Source: a virus (lineage: Duplodnaviria > Caudoviricetes). From it: a stretch of 64,000 nucleotides of DNA. A program made the position numbers and the translations under genes. Positions 11,764 through 18,511 of this stretch are shown piece by piece (position 1 is the stretch's first letter; the number at the start of each line of letters is the position of its first letter). The notes beneath the pieces were generated by a model. The model saw only the letters and a program-made list of their open reading frames with translations, made no database searches and was not told where the DNA came from. The stretch covers positions 96,001 to 160,000 of IMG/VR virus record IMGVR_UViG_3300031998_000009, one strand, 5' to 3'.

Positions 11764-12617
11764 ACACCTCCGGCAATATCAATATGGGTATTTAGAATCC
11801 AGTTATCAATAATCATTTGTTTACTGCTACCTTTCATCTGTAACTCAGACAGATGTTTACTAGTGTTTTTAATTATTTTACAGAATACTTCTGTATCTTC
11901 CTTGCTGCAATTTTCTAATAGATAATTATTACAACATAACATGATACATCTTAAATACAGTATTGGGTCAAACTTTTCGGATTCTTCATCTTTCCTTAAA
12001 TTTAGAAATGTAGATATTTTGAATTCATTAGCCAGATTAGCAGAACCTATGAATTGAATAAACTTATCTGCTAGATTATATAATTCTGTCACGTCTAGTT
12101 TGGAACAGTTCAGAACATCCTGTGGTGTACTACATATACTCTTTACAATATTTAATTCTTTAGATTTGAACTCTATCTTTTTTTCGTTTATAAAGTTTTG
12201 CAGGTCCGTTTGAGTATATGGATCCAGATAAAATACAGTTCCTCTACTAACAATGGTTCCTAAAACACTATTGATATCCTGAACGGTCATAATGAAATAA
12301 GAATCGTTTGGAGGTTCTTCTGTTACTTTTAGAAGTGCATTTTTAGAAGTAACAGACATACCGTCACAATCAAAAAACATATATAATGTCTTCTCTGTAA
12401 CTGTATATGAATTATATATTACTTCTCTTACACTATCTGCTTTAATATCACAAGGAACAAAGTTTGCCCCTAACTGTTTAGCAGCATAATCAGATATTAA
12501 CTTCTTTCCGGAACCTACATTACCTACAAGAATACTGAATCTAGGAAATCTTCCAGTTTCGACTAGATGGTTTATCTTATCTAGAAGTTTTGTTTGACCA
12601 CAAATATACATATTCAT
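11757..12617 (-). CDS. holB: DNA polymerase III delta-prime-like clamp loader subunit
   Basis: GNVGSGKK, NALLKVTEEPP, TIVSRG. Confidence 0.85.
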   Translation of the reverse strand: MNMYICGQTKLLDKINHLVETGRFPRFSILVGNVGSGKKLISDYAAKQLGANFVPCDIKADSVREVIYNSYTVTEKTLYMFFDCDGMSVTSKNALLKVTEEPPNDSYFIMTVQDINSVLGTIVSRGTVFYLDPYTQTDLQNFINEKKIEFKSKELNIVKSICSTPQDVLNCSKLDVTELYNLADKFIQFIGSANLANEFKISTFLNLRKDEESEKFDPILYLRCIMLCCNNYLLENCSKEDTEVFCKIIKNTSKHLSELQMKGSSKQMIIDNWILNTHIDIAGGVC

Positions 12618-13639
12618 GCCTCCGAACAGAGTAAAATAAATGTGGACTCAATCATTGGTTTAGGTGTAGACTCCCACTTAATGCTATTATTCAGATTGAT
12701 CATTTCATTAAGAAGTGTTATAAAGAACTTAAAATCTGAATTATTATATTTGGACATTCTATTATCATAAAGATTAGGTATTTGAATAAATTCGAAAGAT
12801 CTACAAATATCATATTTACAAAGGTCTAGCACAAATGCATTGTAATTCTTGATAAACTGCTTTAGGTCCATACCATCTCTGTAAATAGTTTCAATTATAT
12901 TTATGACTGTTTTCTTATCCATCTTGCACAATGCGTCTGTAAGATCAAAAAGTGTATTATAGTCAACTGTTCCTAATGCTTTAACAACACTTTCCATGGT
13001 AACATCGTTAGAAAAACCTAATACTTTTTCCATAAGAGTAATAGCGTCACGCATACCGCCATCAGCAAGTTTTGCAATATAGCTAATTGCGTCTTCATTA
13101 TATGTATAGGAACATCCTTCTTTATTTTCCATTTCCAATATATACTTCAGACGTTTTGTAATACCGCTGTGAGATATTTTCTTAAAATCATATCTTTGTA
13201 CTCTTGATAGAATTGTATTAGGTATTTTTTGAGGATCTGTTGTAGCAAAAATAAATATGCTTGTAGGTGTAGGTTCTTCAGTTGTCTTGAGTAAACATTG
13301 CCATGAGGTATTGCTCAGCGAGTGGGCCTCATCAATGATATACACCCGATAGTCACAACCAATAGGCTTAAACTTCGAATCATCTATTAGTTTTCTAACA
13401 TCCTCTACACCACTATGAGAAGCTGCGTCTAGCTCTACAATACCGTTTCCATTATTATTGATATACTTTGCAAATAACCTAGCGTCAGTCGTTTTGCCAG
13501 TGCCGGCAGGTCCACAAAACAAATAAGAATTTCGAATTGATTTAGTTTCAATCTGATTCTTCAATATTGCTTTAATAACATCCTGTTCTACTACTTCTTC
13601 AAATGTGGCAGGTCTATACTTCACAGCTAATGTTGGCAT
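12614..13639 (-). CDS. dnaX: DNA polymerase III gamma-like clamp loader ATPase
   Basis: LAVKYRP, GPAGTGKTT, ELDAAS, IIDEAH, LLKTTEEP, TILSR, GGMRDA. Confidence 0.95.
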   Translation of the reverse strand: MPTLAVKYRPATFEEVVEQDVIKAILKNQIETKSIRNSYLFCGPAGTGKTTDARLFAKYINNNGNGIVELDAASHSGVEDVRKLIDDSKFKPIGCDYRVYIIDEAHSLSNTSWQCLLKTTEEPTPTSIFIFATTDPQKIPNTILSRVQRYDFKKISHSGITKRLKYILEMENKEGCSYTYNEDAISYIAKLADGGMRDAITLMEKVLGFSNDVTMESVVKALGTVDYNTLFDLTDALCKMDKKTVINIIETIYRDGMDLKQFIKNYNAFVLDLCKYDICRSFEFIQIPNLYDNRMSKYNNSDFKFFITLLNEMINLNNSIKWESTPKPMIESTFILLCSEA

Positions 13640-14144: not shown

Positions 14145-14518
14145 TGATCCTCAAGATAACTCTTAATAGAGTTTATAGACCCATCTGCAAAATTATAGAG
14201 AATATCAAGTTCGTGTGCGATTGTGTCTAACTGTTTCATTCTTAATTTTACAGCCTGTTTGACCATGGACATAAATCGTTTCATAAGTTTCTTTCTGGCA
14301 ATGCGTTCACCCATATCCTTATTATAAGTATCACCGTTCTTGCAAATGGTTTTAGAAGTTATGATATAGATACCTTTATGTCTGTTGAGAAACAAATCTC
14401 CAAATTCATATGCAATAATTTCGGGTACGTTGTCATAGTATATTTTTGCCTGTGCTACAGTAATATCTCCGTAGTGCTTAAATGTAATGTCCAATGGGTT
14501 GCCTTTAAATTTTTTCAT
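14141..14518 (-). CDS. phage hypothetical protein
   Basis: C-x3-D-x-Y-N-x3-G-x2-IA motif; start at 14518 behind AGGAGG. Confidence 0.65.
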   Translation of the reverse strand: MKKFKGNPLDITFKHYGDITVAQAKIYYDNVPEIIAYEFGDLFLNRHKGIYIITSKTICKNGDTYNKDMGERIARKKLMKRFMSMVKQAVKLRMKQLDTIAHELDILYNFADGSINSIKSYLEDQ

Positions 14519-15014
14519 GTGTGTTTTTCCTCCTACAATATTCTTCACAATCTTCTTGTGTTATATAAAAAACATCGGAACAGGGTAATTCCAGATGTTC
14601 TTCATTAAATTTATCGTATATACTCGCTTCTCTAATAGATACGAACGAATCATTATAAGTACAATCATAGAATACGACATTATTTTGAATAGACATATTA
14701 GTAACAGTGACTTCTTCTGTTTTATAATTGGCTTTATATTCCCTACAACTACACAGTTTATAAGAAACAGAGAAAGAATTATCAACTAATACTAATCCAT
14801 CTTTATTACATTTATTACATTTCTTGGAACGTATATATTGTATCGTGGGTCGATAAATGGTACATAATCTGAACTTATTTAGAGATATACCCGGTTTAAT
14901 TACCTCGGCAAGTTTATTCTTATAATCAAAAACTTCTTTTCTTAATGAGTCTATATAGTTTAAGATATCGAGTTTCATCTCAATATCTTCTTGCAGATAA
15001 TCTCTTGGATTCAT
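14505..15014 (-). CDS. hypothetical protein with CxxC Zn motifs
   Basis: CNKC...CSC; AAGGAGG SD. Confidence 0.65.
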   Translation of the reverse strand: MNPRDYLQEDIEMKLDILNYIDSLRKEVFDYKNKLAEVIKPGISLNKFRLCTIYRPTIQYIRSKKCNKCNKDGLVLVDNSFSVSYKLCSCREYKANYKTEEVTVTNMSIQNNVVFYDCTYNDSFVSIREASIYDKFNEEHLELPCSDVFYITQEDCEEYCRRKNTHEKI

Positions 15015-15038
15015 TCAGTTTCCTCCTTAATACAATTT

Positions 15039-15240
15039 TGGGAACCTCCCTTATATAGGAAAATATACAAGGGAGGCTGGAACTTTCGTACCATTCACCA
15101 AAGGTGTTGTTCCCACAGGAAGTTCTTACATAGGAGGTCGAGAACCCATGGACAAAAAGGATGGCATTCTTCTAGAATCTAAACTTTTGAACTTCCAAGC
15201 GATTTAGATTCTACTCGACATGACCCAACAAAGCTGGGTG
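15039..15240 (-). ncRNA. unknown structured RNA downstream of tRNA-Phe
   Basis: Multiple nested stems, GAAA tetraloop; no credible ORF. Confidence 0.5.
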
Positions 15241-15241
15241 T

Positions 15242-15317
15242 TGGTGTCCCGGAACAGAATCGAACTGTTGACACGGGGATTTTCAGTCCCCTGCTCTACC
15301 ATCTGAGCTACCGAGAC
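15242..15317 (-). tRNA. tRNA-Phe(GAA)
   Basis: Cloverleaf, loop CTGAAAA, encoded CCA. Confidence 0.95.
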
Positions 15318-15323
15318 AAATAA

Positions 15324-15407
15324 CGGAAGGAGAGGGACTCGAACCCTCGCACCTTACGGTCTAGCGGTTTAGCAAACCGTCCCCTTCACCAGCTTGAGCA
15401 TCCTTCC
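15324..15407 (-). tRNA. tRNA-Ser(GCT)
   Basis: Cloverleaf with long variable arm, loop TTGCTAA. Confidence 0.93.
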
Positions 15408-15411
15408 TAAA

Positions 15412-15483
15412 AGTGGATGAAGGGAATTGAACCCTCATTACCTGCTTGGAAGGCAGGAGTCTTAACCATTCGACGACATCCAC
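15412..15483 (-). tRNA. tRNA-Gly(TCC)
   Basis: Cloverleaf, loop CTTCCAA. Confidence 0.93.
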
Positions 15484-15487
15484 AAAG

Positions 15488-15561
15488 TCCTCACAGTAGG
15501 ATTCGAACCTGCGACCTACCGCTTAGAAGGCGGTTGCTCTATCCAACTGAGCTATGTGAGG
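15488..15561 (-). tRNA. tRNA-Arg(TCT)
   Basis: Cloverleaf, loop CTTCTAA. Confidence 0.93.
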
Positions 15562-15564
15562 AGA

Positions 15565-15972
15565 TTAGCTACAATTATGACAAGTGTAATGACTACCATC
15601 GATAAATAATTGTCCAGACCAATTTGTATGAACATTAGGTAAATATAATCTAAATGTATCGATTATCATTTCTTTTATTATAGATGTATTTATGCACTTA
15701 TCCATATAAACATTTGATTCGTATATAACTGTTCCATTCACTTGTTTATGGGGTAGTACCTCAACTCTTCCTCTCGGAAAATAGTCATAAGGAACAGGTT
15801 TACCATCTACGATATATTTGTTTTTTAATGTTTCCCAAGATTTCTTGTGAAGTAAGTTTGTCATAAAATATGGATCATTAGGATCAACTGGATCTGTTAA
15901 TGCTACTAGTTCGTTATTTATAACCCAAAATATTCCTTCACAAAGAACTTGTAGACTTTCATAAACTATCAT
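15565..15972 (-). CDS. hypothetical protein within tRNA array
   Basis: 135-aa ORF, GIFW...H...W...YDYFPRGRV...HYTC. Confidence 0.7.
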   Translation of the reverse strand: MIVYESLQVLCEGIFWVINNELVALTDPVDPNDPYFMTNLLHKKSWETLKNKYIVDGKPVPYDYFPRGRVEVLPHKQVNGTVIYESNVYMDKCINTSIIKEMIIDTFRLYLPNVHTNWSGQLFIDGSHYTCHNCS

Positions 15973-16052
15973 TATTTATCATCCTTACCCAGAATACAGC
16001 AAGAATATAGAATTAATGTTATGAATACAGCTACAAATAAAATAACTTTCAT
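15972..16052 (-). CDS. 26-aa single-pass membrane peptide MKVILFVAVFITLILYSCCILGKDDK
   Basis: AAAGGAGG SD; TAATG coupling to the next gene; below the ORF-track cutoff. Confidence 0.6.
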   Translation of the reverse strand: MKVILFVAVFITLILYSCCILGKDDK

Positions 16053-16080
16053 ATATTATTCCTCCTTTATGGAGAAGAAA

Positions 16081-16164
16081 TGGAAGAGATTGGATTCGAA
16101 CCAATGAAGCACATAGGCAACAGATTTACAGTCTGCCCCCTTTGACCAACTCGGGAACTCTTCC
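16081..16164 (-). tRNA. tRNA-Tyr(GTA)
   Basis: Cloverleaf with variable arm, loop CTGTAAA. Confidence 0.93.
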
Positions 16165-16176
16165 AAATTATATTTA

Positions 16177-16311
16177 ATGCCGGGTGAGTAGTTTCAACCT
16201 CACGCATTCCCGTCCAGAGTTACATAACCTTTTTAACGGAGTTGGTCCTCCGAATGTTCTGTCGTAGGGACTGTATTTTCTTTTCGACTTTTAATGCTTG
16301 TCTACCGACAA
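16177..16311 (-). ncRNA. unknown ~135-nt RNA with tRNA-like ends
   Basis: UGUCGG/CCGGCA terminal stem, GCAUU/AAUGC stem, GUGAG-GUUGAAACUA-CUCAC T-arm-like hairpin. Confidence 0.5.
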
Positions 16312-16320
16312 TAAATATAA

Positions 16321-16395
16321 TGACCCTAACGGGATTTGAACCCATGTTTTCAGAATGAAAATCTGACGTCCTAGACCAGACTAGACGATAGGGCC
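16321..16395 (-). tRNA. tRNA-Glu(TTC)
   Basis: Cloverleaf, loop TTTTCAT. Confidence 0.92.
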
Positions 16396-16397
16396 GG

Positions 16398-16472
16398 TGG
16401 TTGTCGTGGTTGGATTTGAACCAACGAATAACGGCTTCAAAGACCGCTGCCTTTCCACTTGGCGACACGACA
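16398..16472 (-). tRNA. tRNA-Gln(TTG)
   Basis: Cloverleaf, U1-A72, loop CTTTGAA, encoded CCA. Confidence 0.92.
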
Positions 16473-16480
16473 ATCACGAA

Positions 16481-16562
16481 TACTACCTGTGGGACTTGAA
16501 CCCACATTCCTTTCGGAACTGGTTTTTGAGACCAGTGCGTATGCCAATTCCGCCAAGGTAGT
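16481..16562 (-). tRNA. tRNA-Leu(CAA)
   Basis: Cloverleaf with variable arm, loop CTCAAAA. Confidence 0.93.
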
Positions 16563-16569
16563 ATAAGAA

Positions 16570-16644
16570 TCGGAATGACAGGATTCGAACCTGCGACATC
16601 CTGCTCCCAAAGCAGGTGATCTAGCCAAACTGATCTACATTCCG
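16570..16644 (-). tRNA. tRNA-Pro(TGG)
   Basis: Cloverleaf, loop TTTGGGA. Confidence 0.93.
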
Positions 16645-16647
16645 AAT

Positions 16648-16765
16648 TGTGTCAACTCAGCTTTACCTCGCCATTAACGACCATTGTCACTTTTGCCGGC
16701 TACCATACTCGTAGCTTTGCTGCTTCTAAATAAGATAATTATAACGAGCAGCGGTTATAATTAAA
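16648..16765 (-). ncRNA. unknown structured RNA with possible pseudoknot
   Basis: 10-bp stem whose loop GCUGCU can pair with downstream AGCAGC; GCUAC/GUAGC hairpin. Confidence 0.4.
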
Positions 16766-16769
16766 TTAG

Positions 16770-16853
16770 TGCTGCTGACCGGACTTGAACCGGTACGGTG
16801 TATCCACCGAGAGATTTTAAGTCTCTTGCGTCTGCCGATTTCGCCACAGCAGC
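16770..16853 (-). tRNA. tRNA-Leu(TAA)
   Basis: Cloverleaf with variable arm, loop CTTAAAA. Confidence 0.93.
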
Positions 16854-16861
16854 AAATATTA

Positions 16862-16933
16862 AGACAAGGGTGAGATTCGAACTCACGATCGCGGTGTTGC
16901 AGACCGCTGTCTTAACCGCTTGACTACCTTGTC
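16862..16933 (-). tRNA. tRNA-Cys(GCA)
   Basis: Cloverleaf, loop CTGCAAC, U discriminator. Confidence 0.92.
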
Positions 16934-16934
16934 G

Positions 16935-17006
16935 TTATGTGAATCTGTTTTGTATGTACGCCGATAATCGTTCTTTCAAAATTATTCGTGTAACAGATTC
17001 ACATAA
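16935..17006. repeat. 15-bp perfect inverted repeat between tRNA-Sup and tRNA-Cys
   Basis: TTATGTGAATCTGTT (16935-16949) / AACAGATTCACATAA (16992-17006). Confidence 0.85.
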
Positions 17007-17008
17007 AA

Positions 17009-17081
17009 TGGGATTGGACAGGATTTGAACCTGCGATCTGGGCTTTAGACGCCCTTGCCTTACCCACTTGGCTACAATCCC
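17009..17081 (-). tRNA. amber suppressor-like tRNA (anticodon CTA), Gln-like body, aberrant
   Basis: GGGATTG/CAATCCC acceptor; GCC-AAGTGGGTAA-GGC D arm; GGGC-GTCTAAA-GCCC anticodon arm; GCAGG-TTCAAAT-CCTGT T arm; extra C before the acceptor 3' strand. Confidence 0.75.
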
Positions 17082-17083
17082 TA

Positions 17084-17297
17084 GTGGAACACCAGTACCT
17101 CTCCCTCTTGACCGATGTATTAACGAACTCCACCTAAATCCGTCCTGTAAGACCTAGTACAGAAAATATCATCTAAATATAACAGGCGTCCCTGCTTCCT
17201 ATTTAACCCATAAGTGGAGTAAGGTTTTACTGCTTACCTTCAAACATCGTCATCTAGGTCCGGATCCTAAATGATTCCAGGTAACTAGGATTACCCT
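17084..17297 (-). ncRNA. unknown ~210-nt multi-stem RNA between tRNA-Thr and tRNA-Sup
   Basis: Nested stems UGGAA/UUCCA, UCAUUUAGG/CCUAGAUGA, CGAUGU/ACAUCG, ACUCCACUUA/UAGGUGGAGU. Confidence 0.5.
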
Positions 17298-17300
17298 TGA

Positions 17301-17373
17301 AGCTGGATGACGGACTCGAACCCCCGACCTGCTGATTACAAATCAGCTGCACTACCAACTGTGCTAATCCAGC
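17301..17373 (-). tRNA. tRNA-Thr(TGT)
   Basis: Cloverleaf, loop TTTGTAA. Confidence 0.93.
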
Positions 17374-17375
17374 AA

Positions 17376-17570
17376 AGTGTCTGTCTATCCAGACTGTCAT
17401 AAGGCACTGCCACTTATGTTACCGTCTACCGTAAGCCTTATTCCCCTCTCGACGACCGTTAACGGAGTGGTCCATTCCGGATGTCTTGTTAAGGTACAAA
17501 CTCTTAAACCTTACTTTCTCAAGGTTATTTTATAGAACCGTTTGATATAAGTAATAAACCTTTCAGTTCT
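17376..17570 (-). ncRNA. unknown ~195-nt structured RNA between tRNA-Asn and tRNA-Thr
   Basis: AUAAGGC/GCCUUAU, AACCUU/AAGGUU and GUCUG/CAGAC stems; shares a motif with 16177-16311. Confidence 0.5.
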
Positions 17571-17572
17571 TT

Positions 17573-17648
17573 TGGCTCCCGTAGACAGACTCGAACTGCC
17601 GACTTGATCATTAACAGTGACCCGTTCTACCAACTGAACTATATGGGA
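17573..17648 (-). tRNA. tRNA-Asn(GTT)
   Basis: Cloverleaf, loop CTGTTAA, G discriminator + CCA. Confidence 0.93.
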
Positions 17649-17652
17649 ATGA

Positions 17653-17726
17653 TGGGCTCTCTGGGACTCGAACCCAGGACCACCCGGTTATGAGCCGGAA
17701 GCGCTAACCGACTGCGCTAAGAGCCC
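17653..17726 (-). tRNA. tRNA with CAT anticodon, probably Ile2 (lysidine) rather than Met
   Basis: CCGG-CTCATAA-CCGG anticodon arm typical of Firmicutes Ile2. Confidence 0.85.
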
Positions 17727-17819
17727 GTATAAACTCCTACAAAAACAATGCATGGTTATCATTGAAACATCGGAGTTTGTGTTTTTTACATTTGAAAGAA
17801 AGGAATATCAAATGTCTGG

Positions 17820-17895
17820 TGGTGTGCCAACTGGGATTTGAACCCAGGACCCCTTCCTTAAAAGGGAAGTGTTCTGCCAGCTGAACTATTGGCAC
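17820..17895 (-). tRNA. tRNA-Lys(TTT)
   Basis: Cloverleaf, loop CTTTTAA, encoded CCA. Confidence 0.93.
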
Positions 17896-18026
17896 ATTTT
17901 CAACCTCTAAAAACTTACATCACAAAATAAGTAAAACTTGGTTGAATTTAGTTTTATTAAAGGAGAATGGAATGAGATGGACAGTCGTTTTTTATTTCCT
18001 TTATCACTATTCGTGTTTACAAACAT

Positions 18027-18055
18027 ATTATAACACATTATTCAGATATTGTCAA
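18027..18055 (-). promoter_or_regulatory. consensus sigmaA promoter of tRNA array
   Basis: TTGACA-17bp-TATAAT with extended -10 TG. Confidence 0.9.
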
Positions 18056-18088
18056 GTACTTTTTGAAATTTTCTTTTTATTTTTATAT

Positions 18089-18511
18089 TTAATTTTTAAC
18101 TACTCTCTTTACTTCTGTTTCTGGAGAAAGTATAACCGGATCACCTGTTTTAGGGAAGGCGATAACAAAATCACCTTTTGTTGTTTCGTACACTTTATAA
18201 CAGTTGAATTTATAAAAGAACTGCTCACCTTGCTTCAGTTCTCCGAGTTTCACAGAGAAATTTGGAATAGGAATTCTTTTATATCTTGCCCAGGCAATAG
18301 CAATACCTGTTTTTGGATTGTACTTGTCAGTTTCTTTACATTTAGCAGAAGCTATTTTTCCGGTTTTACTATTCATAATAAAAACCGTAGTGCTTTTATC
18401 TGAATTAATAAAAACATCCTGGTGAAGATTAACTGTTTTTATGGTTGTTTTTATATAATCCATCCACATTGAATAACACCATTCATCAAATGTTTTGCAG
18501 TTTTTTCTCAT
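18089..18511 (-). CDS. phage hypothetical protein
   Basis: AKCKETDKYNPKTGIAIAWAR motif; GAGGTG SD; own promoter. Confidence 0.7.
   Translation of the reverse strand: MRKNCKTFDEWCYSMWMDYIKTTIKTVNLHQDVFINSDKSTTVFIMNSKTGKIASAKCKETDKYNPKTGIAIAWARYKRIPIPNFSVKLGELKQGEQFFYKFNCYKVYETTKGDFVIAFPKTGDPVILSPETEVKRVVKN

Follow-up and report, generated by a model that had tools for sequence, protein, structure and literature searches.

A 64,000-nucleotide (nt) stretch of a tailed phage (Caudoviricetes), referred to here as the window, covers bases 96001 to 160000 of the 198.5-kb IMG/VR record IMGVR_UViG_3300031998_000009, which is approximately 86% complete. The DNA runs that contain the stretch derive from cattle and sheep gut samples. 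Its minus strand carries a transfer RNA (tRNA) operon (positions 15242 to 17895) of 16 tRNA genes, including a CUA suppressor tRNA (17009 to 17081), on which ARAGORN and the Rfam tRNA model agree. ARAGORN, with introns and transfer-messenger RNA (tmRNA) allowed, found no further tRNA and no tmRNA in the whole 198.5-kb record. The consensus promoter proposed in an earlier, sequence-only reading of this DNA is present upstream of the operon on the same strand (18055 to 18027): it is of the sigma-70 type (TTGACA-17 nt-TGTTATAAT), matches the consensus at 12 of 12 positions and carries a TG extension. No terminator-like site occurs on the minus strand, outside the tRNAs, down to position 14300. 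Neighboring tRNAs of the operon are mostly 2 to 8 nt apart, and five gaps are long: S1 (17374 to 17572; 199 nt), S2 (17082 to 17300; 219 nt), S3 (16646 to 16768; 123 nt), S4 (16166 to 16320; 155 nt) and S5 (15039 to 15241; 203 nt), the last of which follows the final tRNA. With a probability that we put at about 0.6, these long spacers are distinct genes that together encode at least four families of small, structured noncoding RNAs (an S1/S4 type, S3, S5 and probably S2), carried as modular cassettes.

The sequence-only reading had singled out five spacers as noncoding, richer in guanine plus cytosine (GC) than their surroundings and extensively self-complementary. All five are confirmed, with boundaries that agree to within a few nt. 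The GC content of the spacers is 0.38 to 0.43, compared with 0.27 in the leader and approximately 0.3 in flanking DNA, and the only open reading frames (ORFs) in them overlap tRNAs or lie on the opposite strand, none being credible. Additional gaps of 75, 93 and 518 nt, the last holding two ORFs, were absent from that reading. Self-complementarity stands for S4 and S5, the only spacers clearly more stable than shuffled sequences by minimum free energy (z scores of -3.1 and -3.9), and is weak against shuffles for S1 (-1.8), S2 (-1.0) and S3 (-0.8). By itself, self-complementarity is weak support for these three spacers; the real support is covariation in relatives.

Rfam 15 models identified the 16 tRNAs and nothing else in the window at gathering scores. 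At E values of ≤10 across positions 14500 to 18500, S1 to S5 gave neither GOLLD, ROOL, ribozyme, Y RNA nor tmRNA matches, the families suggested for checking at the outset, and none to riboswitches, 6S RNA, RNase P RNA or SRP RNA; the single hit was a chance 20-bit match to CRISPR-DR47 (E = 2.9) at the 3' edge of S5. The tRNA model likewise has no hit in the spacers at E values of ≤10. Among 14 related loci, Rfam found tRNAs and one RAGATH-18 RNA elsewhere; the RAGATH-18 match, of 54.1 bits (gathering score, 44.9), lies inside a tRNA array at L053:7591-7652, beside an HNH endonuclease gene.

When the entire array was searched by blastn against 50,697 phage records, only its tRNAs matched. Approximately 100 loci (L numbers), many with tRNA arrays, were obtained from contigs carrying clusters of a 135-amino-acid ORF family and from profile-based scans of IMG/VR and JGI metagenomes, and distant homologues of the spacers were found by blastn, nhmmer, pattern scans and three covariance models (R1 to R3). 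The models added no members except one divergent S5, and they did not link S1, S2 or S4 to S3. The neighboring HD-hydrolase gene, also tried as a route to relatives, pointed to 54-kb phages that are unrelated and have no tRNAs. Three near-identical phages (L035, L059 and their duplicates), approximately 95% identical to the window overall, keep S1, S2, S4 and S5, with identities of 99 to 99.5% for S1, 98 to 100% for S4 and 96.8 to 98.2% for S2; in the same relatives, identities are 96 to 98% for tRNAs, 91.6 to 98.3% for ORFs (four of five at ≤96.1%) and 91.5% for the leader. In every relative, the elements are on the tRNA strand and flush with tRNAs. DNA contigs of four runs over the region contain few variants, and many of their joints at tRNAs stem from other organisms.

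S3 is an RNA of approximately 120 nt with four elements, as seen in an alignment of 11 distinct sequences (A4). The GCUGCU loop of hairpin Pa (16739 to 16760) pairs with AGCAGC (16719 to 16724; AGCAGY across the alignment) to form a pseudoknot. Hairpin Pb (16699 to 16715) has five base pairs and an invariant GAGUAUG loop and is accompanied by an invariant CCGGC (16695 to 16699). Stem Pc (16684 to 16690 with 16649 to 16655), in which all six pairs covary, caps an invariant 26-nt loop, GGUCGUUAAUGGCGAGGUAAAGCUGA (16657 to 16682), whose consensus is RGUCGUUAAKGGCGAGNNAAAGCUGA. Across A4, 99% of cells are paired, and compensatory changes occur at 18 of the 29 pairs, a value equaled by none of 500 shuffles and compared with at most six in slid controls. 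The strand is fixed by the many G-U pairs. Homologues were found by nhmmer in L053, L060 and L100 and by pattern scan in seven IMG/VR contigs of 76 to 221 kb, and the members belong to rumen and other large phages. A tRNA 3' end lies immediately before S3 and the next tRNA 4 to 10 nt after it in 11 of 11 cases; the preceding tRNA is Leu in the window and three relatives, Ser in five and another in two. The S3 pattern has no match among 185,579 prokaryote genomes (GTDB), and covariance model R1, built on S3, recovers known members only.

The flush junction with a tRNA 3' end, the compact pseudoknotted fold and the approximately 45 invariant loop and junction nucleotides, a number typical of catalytic or ligand-binding cores, raise the question of whether a spacer, S3 above all, could be a new class of small self-cleaving ribozyme that trims neighboring tRNAs or frees itself. 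The precedent is the theta ribozymes (hepatitis delta virus [HDV]-like), which lie beside tRNAs, often suppressors, of gut phages (Kienbeck et al. 2024, PMC10879173); like them, the spacers are compact pseudoknotted RNAs abutting tRNA 3' ends in gut phages that carry suppressor tRNAs. Unlike them, the spacers measure 120 to 220 nt rather than a minimal motif, have no match to an HDV model or any other Rfam ribozyme family at E values of ≤10, and begin with AAAG, UCAA, CUAA, UUAU, ACAC or UUUU, in which the required G+1 at the junction is absent. A loose HDV-like descriptor gave 24 hits, compared with a mean of 29 in shuffles, and none was within 5 nt of a tRNA 3' end. S3 consists of an H-type pseudoknot and two hairpins instead of the nested double pseudoknot of HDV-like RNAs (P1, P2, P3, P1.1 and P4, with a catalytic C in J4/2), the topologies of S4 and S5 also differ, and no cleavage site can be named. 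A self-cleaving role is accordingly rated quite unlikely.

S4, an RNA of approximately 135 to 155 nt, has a cloverleaf-like layout supported by homologues and covariation. A closing stem, UGUCGG/CCGGCA (16305 to 16310 with 16178 to 16183), is followed by UA and then by a small GAC/GUC hairpin. A long arm carries the module CGGAG-GACCAA-CUCCG-UUAAAAA-GGUU (16226 to 16252), and a T-arm-like hairpin of five base pairs with a UUGAAAC loop (16184 to 16203) lies immediately against the closing stem's 3' strand. Homologues at L056:342-496 and L165:10510-10662 are located between or after tRNAs. In the alignment, 93.6% of cells are paired, the closing stem covaries, and 13 of 39 pairs show compensatory changes; none of 500 shuffles equals this, and slid controls reach five at most.

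S1 is known from the near-identical phages and one distant homologue, L060:1569-1675, which is 79% identical to its 3' half. The 199-nt RNA contains a 5' hairpin (17534 to 17570), a pseudoknotted module CGGA-loop(GGACC)-UCCG-UUAA-C-GGUC (17454 to 17479), a long stem AAUAAGGC/GCCUUAU (17399 to 17442) and a terminal hairpin GUCUG-GAUAGA-CAGAC (17379 to 17394). Compared with S1, L060 has compensatory changes in the 5' hairpin, in the terminal hairpin (GUCUG/CAGAC to GACCG/CGGUC) and in the loop-to-tail pairing of the module (GACC:GGUC to GGCU:AGCC). The pseudoknot hairpin was read directly from the sequences, because MAFFT places L060 one column off in alignment A6. A pattern scan of IMG/VR for S1 returned only the near-identical contig.

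A short module, an H-type pseudoknot built on a hairpin of 4 to 5 bp, recurs in S1, S4, S3 and possibly S2. The sequence-only reading had noted CGUUAA in four spacers, and the plus-strand TTAACG is present at each of the four positions it gave (16233, 16674, 17120 and 17459). The window shows no enrichment of the hexamer as such (18 observed versus 28.9 expected), but the pattern CGGM-N5-14-KYCG-UUAA, chosen post hoc, occurs four times in 64 kb, always in these spacers, versus 0.12 times expected. The local similarity between S1 and S4 scores 31, compared with 16.8 ± 2.4 in shuffles, and 0 of 300 shuffles reach it. The piece common to S1 and S4 is a CGGA(G)/(C)UCCG hairpin with GGACC in its loop, followed by UUAA and then by GGUY, which pairs with the loop to complete an H-type pseudoknot. 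Within this structure, CGUUAA combines the short hairpin's 3' strand with the first bases of the third pseudoknot loop. The module covaries in S4, with loop-tail ACC:GGU replaced by UCC:GGA in L165 and the hairpin CGGAG/CUCCG by UGGAG/CUCCA in L056. The topology recurs in S3 (CGGC/GUCG followed by UUAA), where the covarying Pc arises from pairing of loop nucleotides with sequence downstream, and a similar drawing is possible for S2 (CGGA/UUCG-UUAA). Outside the module, S1 to S4 have no sequence relation to each other. A scan of IMG/VR for the motif shared by S1 and S4 gave 33 hits, mostly by chance, of which only the near-identical contig was genuine. The preQ1-I riboswitch was considered because the module is an H-type pseudoknot with an A-rich tail and the phage has deazaguanine genes; it was rejected, with no hit at E values of ≤10 and with the modules located between tRNAs, not before genes.

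S2 lies directly upstream of the suppressor tRNA and contains the possible module copy CGGA-loop-UUCG-UUAA at 17114 to 17142. It was seen in near-identical relatives only, with no homologue in five large related records. Its variants among these relatives (17107, 17109, 17163 and 17173) are few and fit the predicted pairs.

S5, of approximately 200 nt, is larger than first delimited. It comprises a small 5' hairpin (15223 to 15239); hairpin Pa (15173 to 15213), whose loop GGAAGUUC (15189 to 15196) pairs with GAACUUCC (15118 to 15125); a conserved CCUCCU (15132 to 15137); and a four-way junction core formed by P1 (15109 to 15115 with 15039 to 15045), P2 (15096 to 15106), P3 (15078 to 15093) and P4 (15045 to 15077). 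One arm of the junction, CACC-UUU-GGUG, is invariant, another is capped by a GNRA loop and a third is long and variable; P4 is joined to P1 without a linker. In the core alignment A7 (15037 to 15126; 10 sequences), 88.7% of cells are paired and 19 of 27 pairs show compensatory changes, a result reached by none of 500 shuffles. The long-range helix formed by the Pa loop spans approximately 65 nt and ends two bases before the core; five of its eight pairs are compensatory, and its covariation score is 0.53 versus 0.19 in shuffles. Homologues occur in L048, L049, L054, L055, L056, L057, L100 and L157, and covariance model R2 added L053:9006-9129. The core pattern has five hits in GTDB, approximately the number expected by chance, and R2 confirmed none of them apart from a 22-bit match.

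Directly behind S5 is ORF169 (14505 to 15014, minus strand; 169 amino acids), which has a Shine-Dalgarno sequence, AAGGAGG, at 15022 to 15028. S5 follows whichever tRNA is last in the array and ends 25 to 35 nt before the start codon of an ORF169 homologue. The two are linked in eight of nine lineages, with ORF169 homologues after S5 in L048, L049, L053, L054, L055, L056 and L057; L060 has an ORF169 homologue and no detectable S5. The ORF169 proteins are only 23 to 39% identical among these phages, compared with a nucleotide identity of 70 to 85% for the S5 core. Searches with ORF169 gave no family in Pfam or PHROG and, at E values of ≤0.001, no fold in the PDB; its structural model (predicted local distance difference test [pLDDT], 84.6) consists of a long helix and a beta domain with four invariant cysteines in a zinc-ribbon-like CxxC...CxC arrangement. 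The constant position of S5 directly upstream of one ORF family suggests that it is probably a cis leader of the ORF169 family that stays on the mRNA. Remaining on the downstream transcript, it would most likely control or stabilize ORF169, perhaps through CCUCC pairing with the Shine-Dalgarno sequence; read from the sequences, most members have a CCUCC able to pair with GGAGG in the ribosome-binding site. The leader of T4 gene 32 contains a pseudoknot and is a structured translational leader of a phage gene. S5 resembles it in being conserved and pseudoknotted and in lying just 5' of the ribosome-binding site of a single conserved gene, but it is much larger and forms the end of a tRNA operon as well, and regulation by S5 is proposed from its position and conservation.

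Our best guess for S4 is a cloverleaf-like tRNA mimic, and from its layout S4 would probably be drawn into pathways that handle tRNAs, for example RNase P and 3' processing. A further step would make S4, and perhaps S5, decoys or sponges for host tRNA-directed defense nucleases or for enzymes that modify or handle tRNAs. The covarying acceptor-like stem of 6 bp with its UA, the T-arm-like hairpin abutting the 3' strand and the four-arm layout of S4 all fit such a role, as does the four-way junction of S5 with its linker-free P4-P1, and bacterial immunity has tRNAs among its recognized targets (PMC12851939). Against it, the tRNA model scores neither RNA even at E values of ≤10, both lack an anticodon-like 7-nt loop in the right arm and an encoded CCA, no defense or counterdefense gene is linked to either, and the tie of S5 to its downstream ORF fits a cis role better. 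Decoy activity is distinctly unlikely on this balance.

Partnership of the spacers with a phage Ro60/Rsr protein, in the manner of Y RNAs, is very improbable. The settings are alike, with structured RNAs between phage tRNAs: YrlA RNAs are often encoded near phage tRNAs and contain a tRNA-like domain (Chen et al. 2014, PMC4201824), a feature comparable to the acceptor-like and T-arm-like helices of S4. However, no TROVE/Ro60 gene (PF05731) was found in the 198.5-kb record, itself approximately 86% complete, in a search that recovered positive controls in two genomes; nor does the YrlA model match the spacers, its hits reaching only 20 to 21 bits (gathering score, 69) and overlapping genuine tRNAs.

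The distribution of the families bears on their independence. Among five other phage genomes, G001 (207 kb) has S5 without S3, G005 has S5 only, G006 has S3 only, G002 (237 kb, complete) has S4 without S5 or S3, and G003 (221 kb, complete) has S3 without S5; the S5 and S3 models were run over all five whole records, some only partly complete, and S4 in G002 is known from the match at its locus only. In L035, approximately 95% identical to the window, S3 is swapped for an unrelated 225-nt ORF-free element (L035:13569-13793), and S1, S2, S4 and S5 stay. The S families occur singly in different phages and are therefore independent RNA genes rather than parts of one ornate RNA. The sequence-only reading had offered the latter as an option, in the form of a large GOLLD- or ROOL-like RNA whose segments are interrupted by tRNAs. 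The shared strand and operon and the short motif common to four spacers would suit it, and GOLLD and ROOL RNAs also have complex folds and occur in phage and rumen settings, often near tRNAs (PMC12286853). The spacers are nevertheless much smaller independent units, each found alone in other genomes, complete ones included; their covarying helices are all local to one spacer with no pairing between spacers, and the GOLLD and ROOL models have no match. This option is hardly credible.

Comparison with L035 shows that the array itself evolves by cassette exchange. At L035:11465-12606, the window's tRNA-Met region has given way to a 1.1-kb insertion and to another tRNA, which has the anticodon UAU and a variable arm that is long. 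Thirty-five arrays of relatives (L048 to L165) contain 78 ORF-free inter-tRNA spacers of 90 to 400 nt in 47 blastn clusters, and cassette-like RNAs are thus usual among these phages. Examples of clusters are L053:6517-6849 with L057:2259-2592 and L158:3248-3406 with four relatives.

That 78 spacers fall into 47 clusters also suggests loose sequence requirements generally, as would be expected if spacers were only cis-acting structures that guide RNase III, E or P or prevent tRNA misfolding, with no later life. Their constant location within tRNA arrays, the AU-rich stem formed by the flanks of S4 and the plain 13-bp hairpin of an additional spacer, Sa, are consistent with such a role. Yet spacers are not needed for processing in an operon in which most tRNAs are only 2 to 8 nt apart; pseudoknots, four-way junctions and 26-nt invariant loops far exceed the needs of a nuclease site; and the same family is kept beside different tRNAs, as S3 is after Leu, Ser and others. 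A purely cis-acting function is unlikely for these reasons.

The reading of the spacers as RNA genes implies that they would be transcribed with the tRNAs from the promoter at 18055 to 18027. Each element abuts tRNAs within 0 to 12 nt, from which we infer that host tRNA-processing nucleases would then release the spacer RNAs. Both expression from this promoter and release in this way are plausible given how the operon is arranged. Once released, they may, as a best guess, act in trans. Sequence comparison establishes conservation, structure, strand, modularity and linkage, whereas transcription, processing and all functions are proposals. The proposal of novel tRNA-punctuated noncoding RNAs is supported for S3, S5 and S4, which are conserved in relatives with compensatory pairs and have no Rfam match, and likely for S1, whose support is moderate; S2 is a candidate.

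Several points weigh against this reading. The S4 alignment represents three lineages, and the covariation of S1 derives from a single diverged sequence (L060). The fold of S2 is no better than shuffles (z, -1.0), and no diverged homologue of it was found. The shared module was defined post hoc, and in S3 its hairpin is invariant and hence without covariation. The invariance of the S3 loops in L158 to L164 was partly imposed by the search pattern; L053, L060 and L100, found by nhmmer, share the same loops. Shuffle controls take no account of kinship among the sequences. The CCUCC:GGAGG pairing of S5 is unable to covary and is so far only a conserved coincidence.

The nearest analogy in kind is RNAC and RNAD, small RNAs of unknown role from the T4 tRNA region (PMC3014915). 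Like these, the spacer RNAs are small non-tRNA RNAs among phage tRNA genes on the tRNA strand, here in all relatives as well, and are presumably matured with the tRNAs. They differ in comprising several families with pseudoknots and a four-way junction, in coming from an uncultured rumen phage of approximately 200 kb and in being known from sequence; the likeness drawn here is one of setting. From IMG/VR, also the data source of this study, Fremin et al. (2023, PMC10690425) predicted 8,495 candidate structured RNAs (csRNAs). These are covariation-supported phage RNAs, some of which are tRNA-like and some directly upstream of genes, as are the RNAs in this study. The text of that paper, with which the present motifs were compared, does not describe them.

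A more ambitious interpretation is that phage tRNA operons harbor a new class of RNA that is catalytic or senses a ligand, with a core formed by S3 or by the pseudoknot module that S3 shares with S1, S4 and S2. Examples would be a self-cleaving ribozyme that matures adjacent tRNAs or an aptamer that couples the output of the tRNA operon to a metabolite; S5 would then be a new riboswitch-like translational controller of a zinc-ribbon protein. We consider this unlikely.

Other features of the array concern the suppressor tRNA, a further spacer and neighboring genes. The anticodon loop of the suppressor tRNA varies among near-identical phages, with CUA (amber) in the window and UCA (opal) at L059:3875-3947, and the rest of the tRNA is almost unchanged. 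The counterpart at L035:13256-13328 has the loop ACACAAA, and the same change occurs at positions 17047 to 17050 in a sheep-gut run. The 75-nt spacer after the suppressor tRNA, Sa (16934 to 17008, minus strand), contains the 13-bp hairpin (16937 to 17004; fold z score, -5.0), is found in near-identical relatives only and may be either a processing hairpin of the RNase III type or a further small RNA.

Two ORFs are embedded in the array on the minus strand: one encodes a 26-amino-acid hydrophobic peptide (15972 to 16052), and its stop overlaps the start of the other, the 135-amino-acid ORF (15565 to 15972). The family of the latter includes more than 40 clusters, has 20 invariant residues, including a C-terminal H-Y-x-C-x-x-C, and has no match in Pfam or PHROG. 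Large rumen and gut phages regularly carry it within their tRNA arrays, some genomes having two members. Downstream of the array, the clamp-loader large subunit has 341 amino acids in the window (12614 to 13639) and 745 to 778 in several relatives (L048:8170-10407, L055:6406-8661 and L056:2666-5002), where LAGLIDADG or intein Pfam hits suggest insertion of an intein.

Phage tRNA clusters are usually annotated as tRNAs and junk spacers. In these ruminant-gut phages of approximately 200 kb, the spacers hold a stock of structured-RNA genes that can be exchanged, and at least three of these genes (S3, S5 and S4) are well supported and outside Rfam. With their invariant loops, their pseudoknots and their tRNA-like layouts, these RNAs are good candidates for ribozymes, aptamers or tRNA-pathway decoys of new kinds, and S5 paired with ORF169 is a candidate cis-regulatory RNA of a new kind. 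New RNA families could be seeded from the alignments and covariance models, which could also direct the sequencing of small RNAs in rumen viromes. What T4 RNAC and RNAD do has been a question for decades, and this broader collection of comparable RNAs may contribute to its answer.

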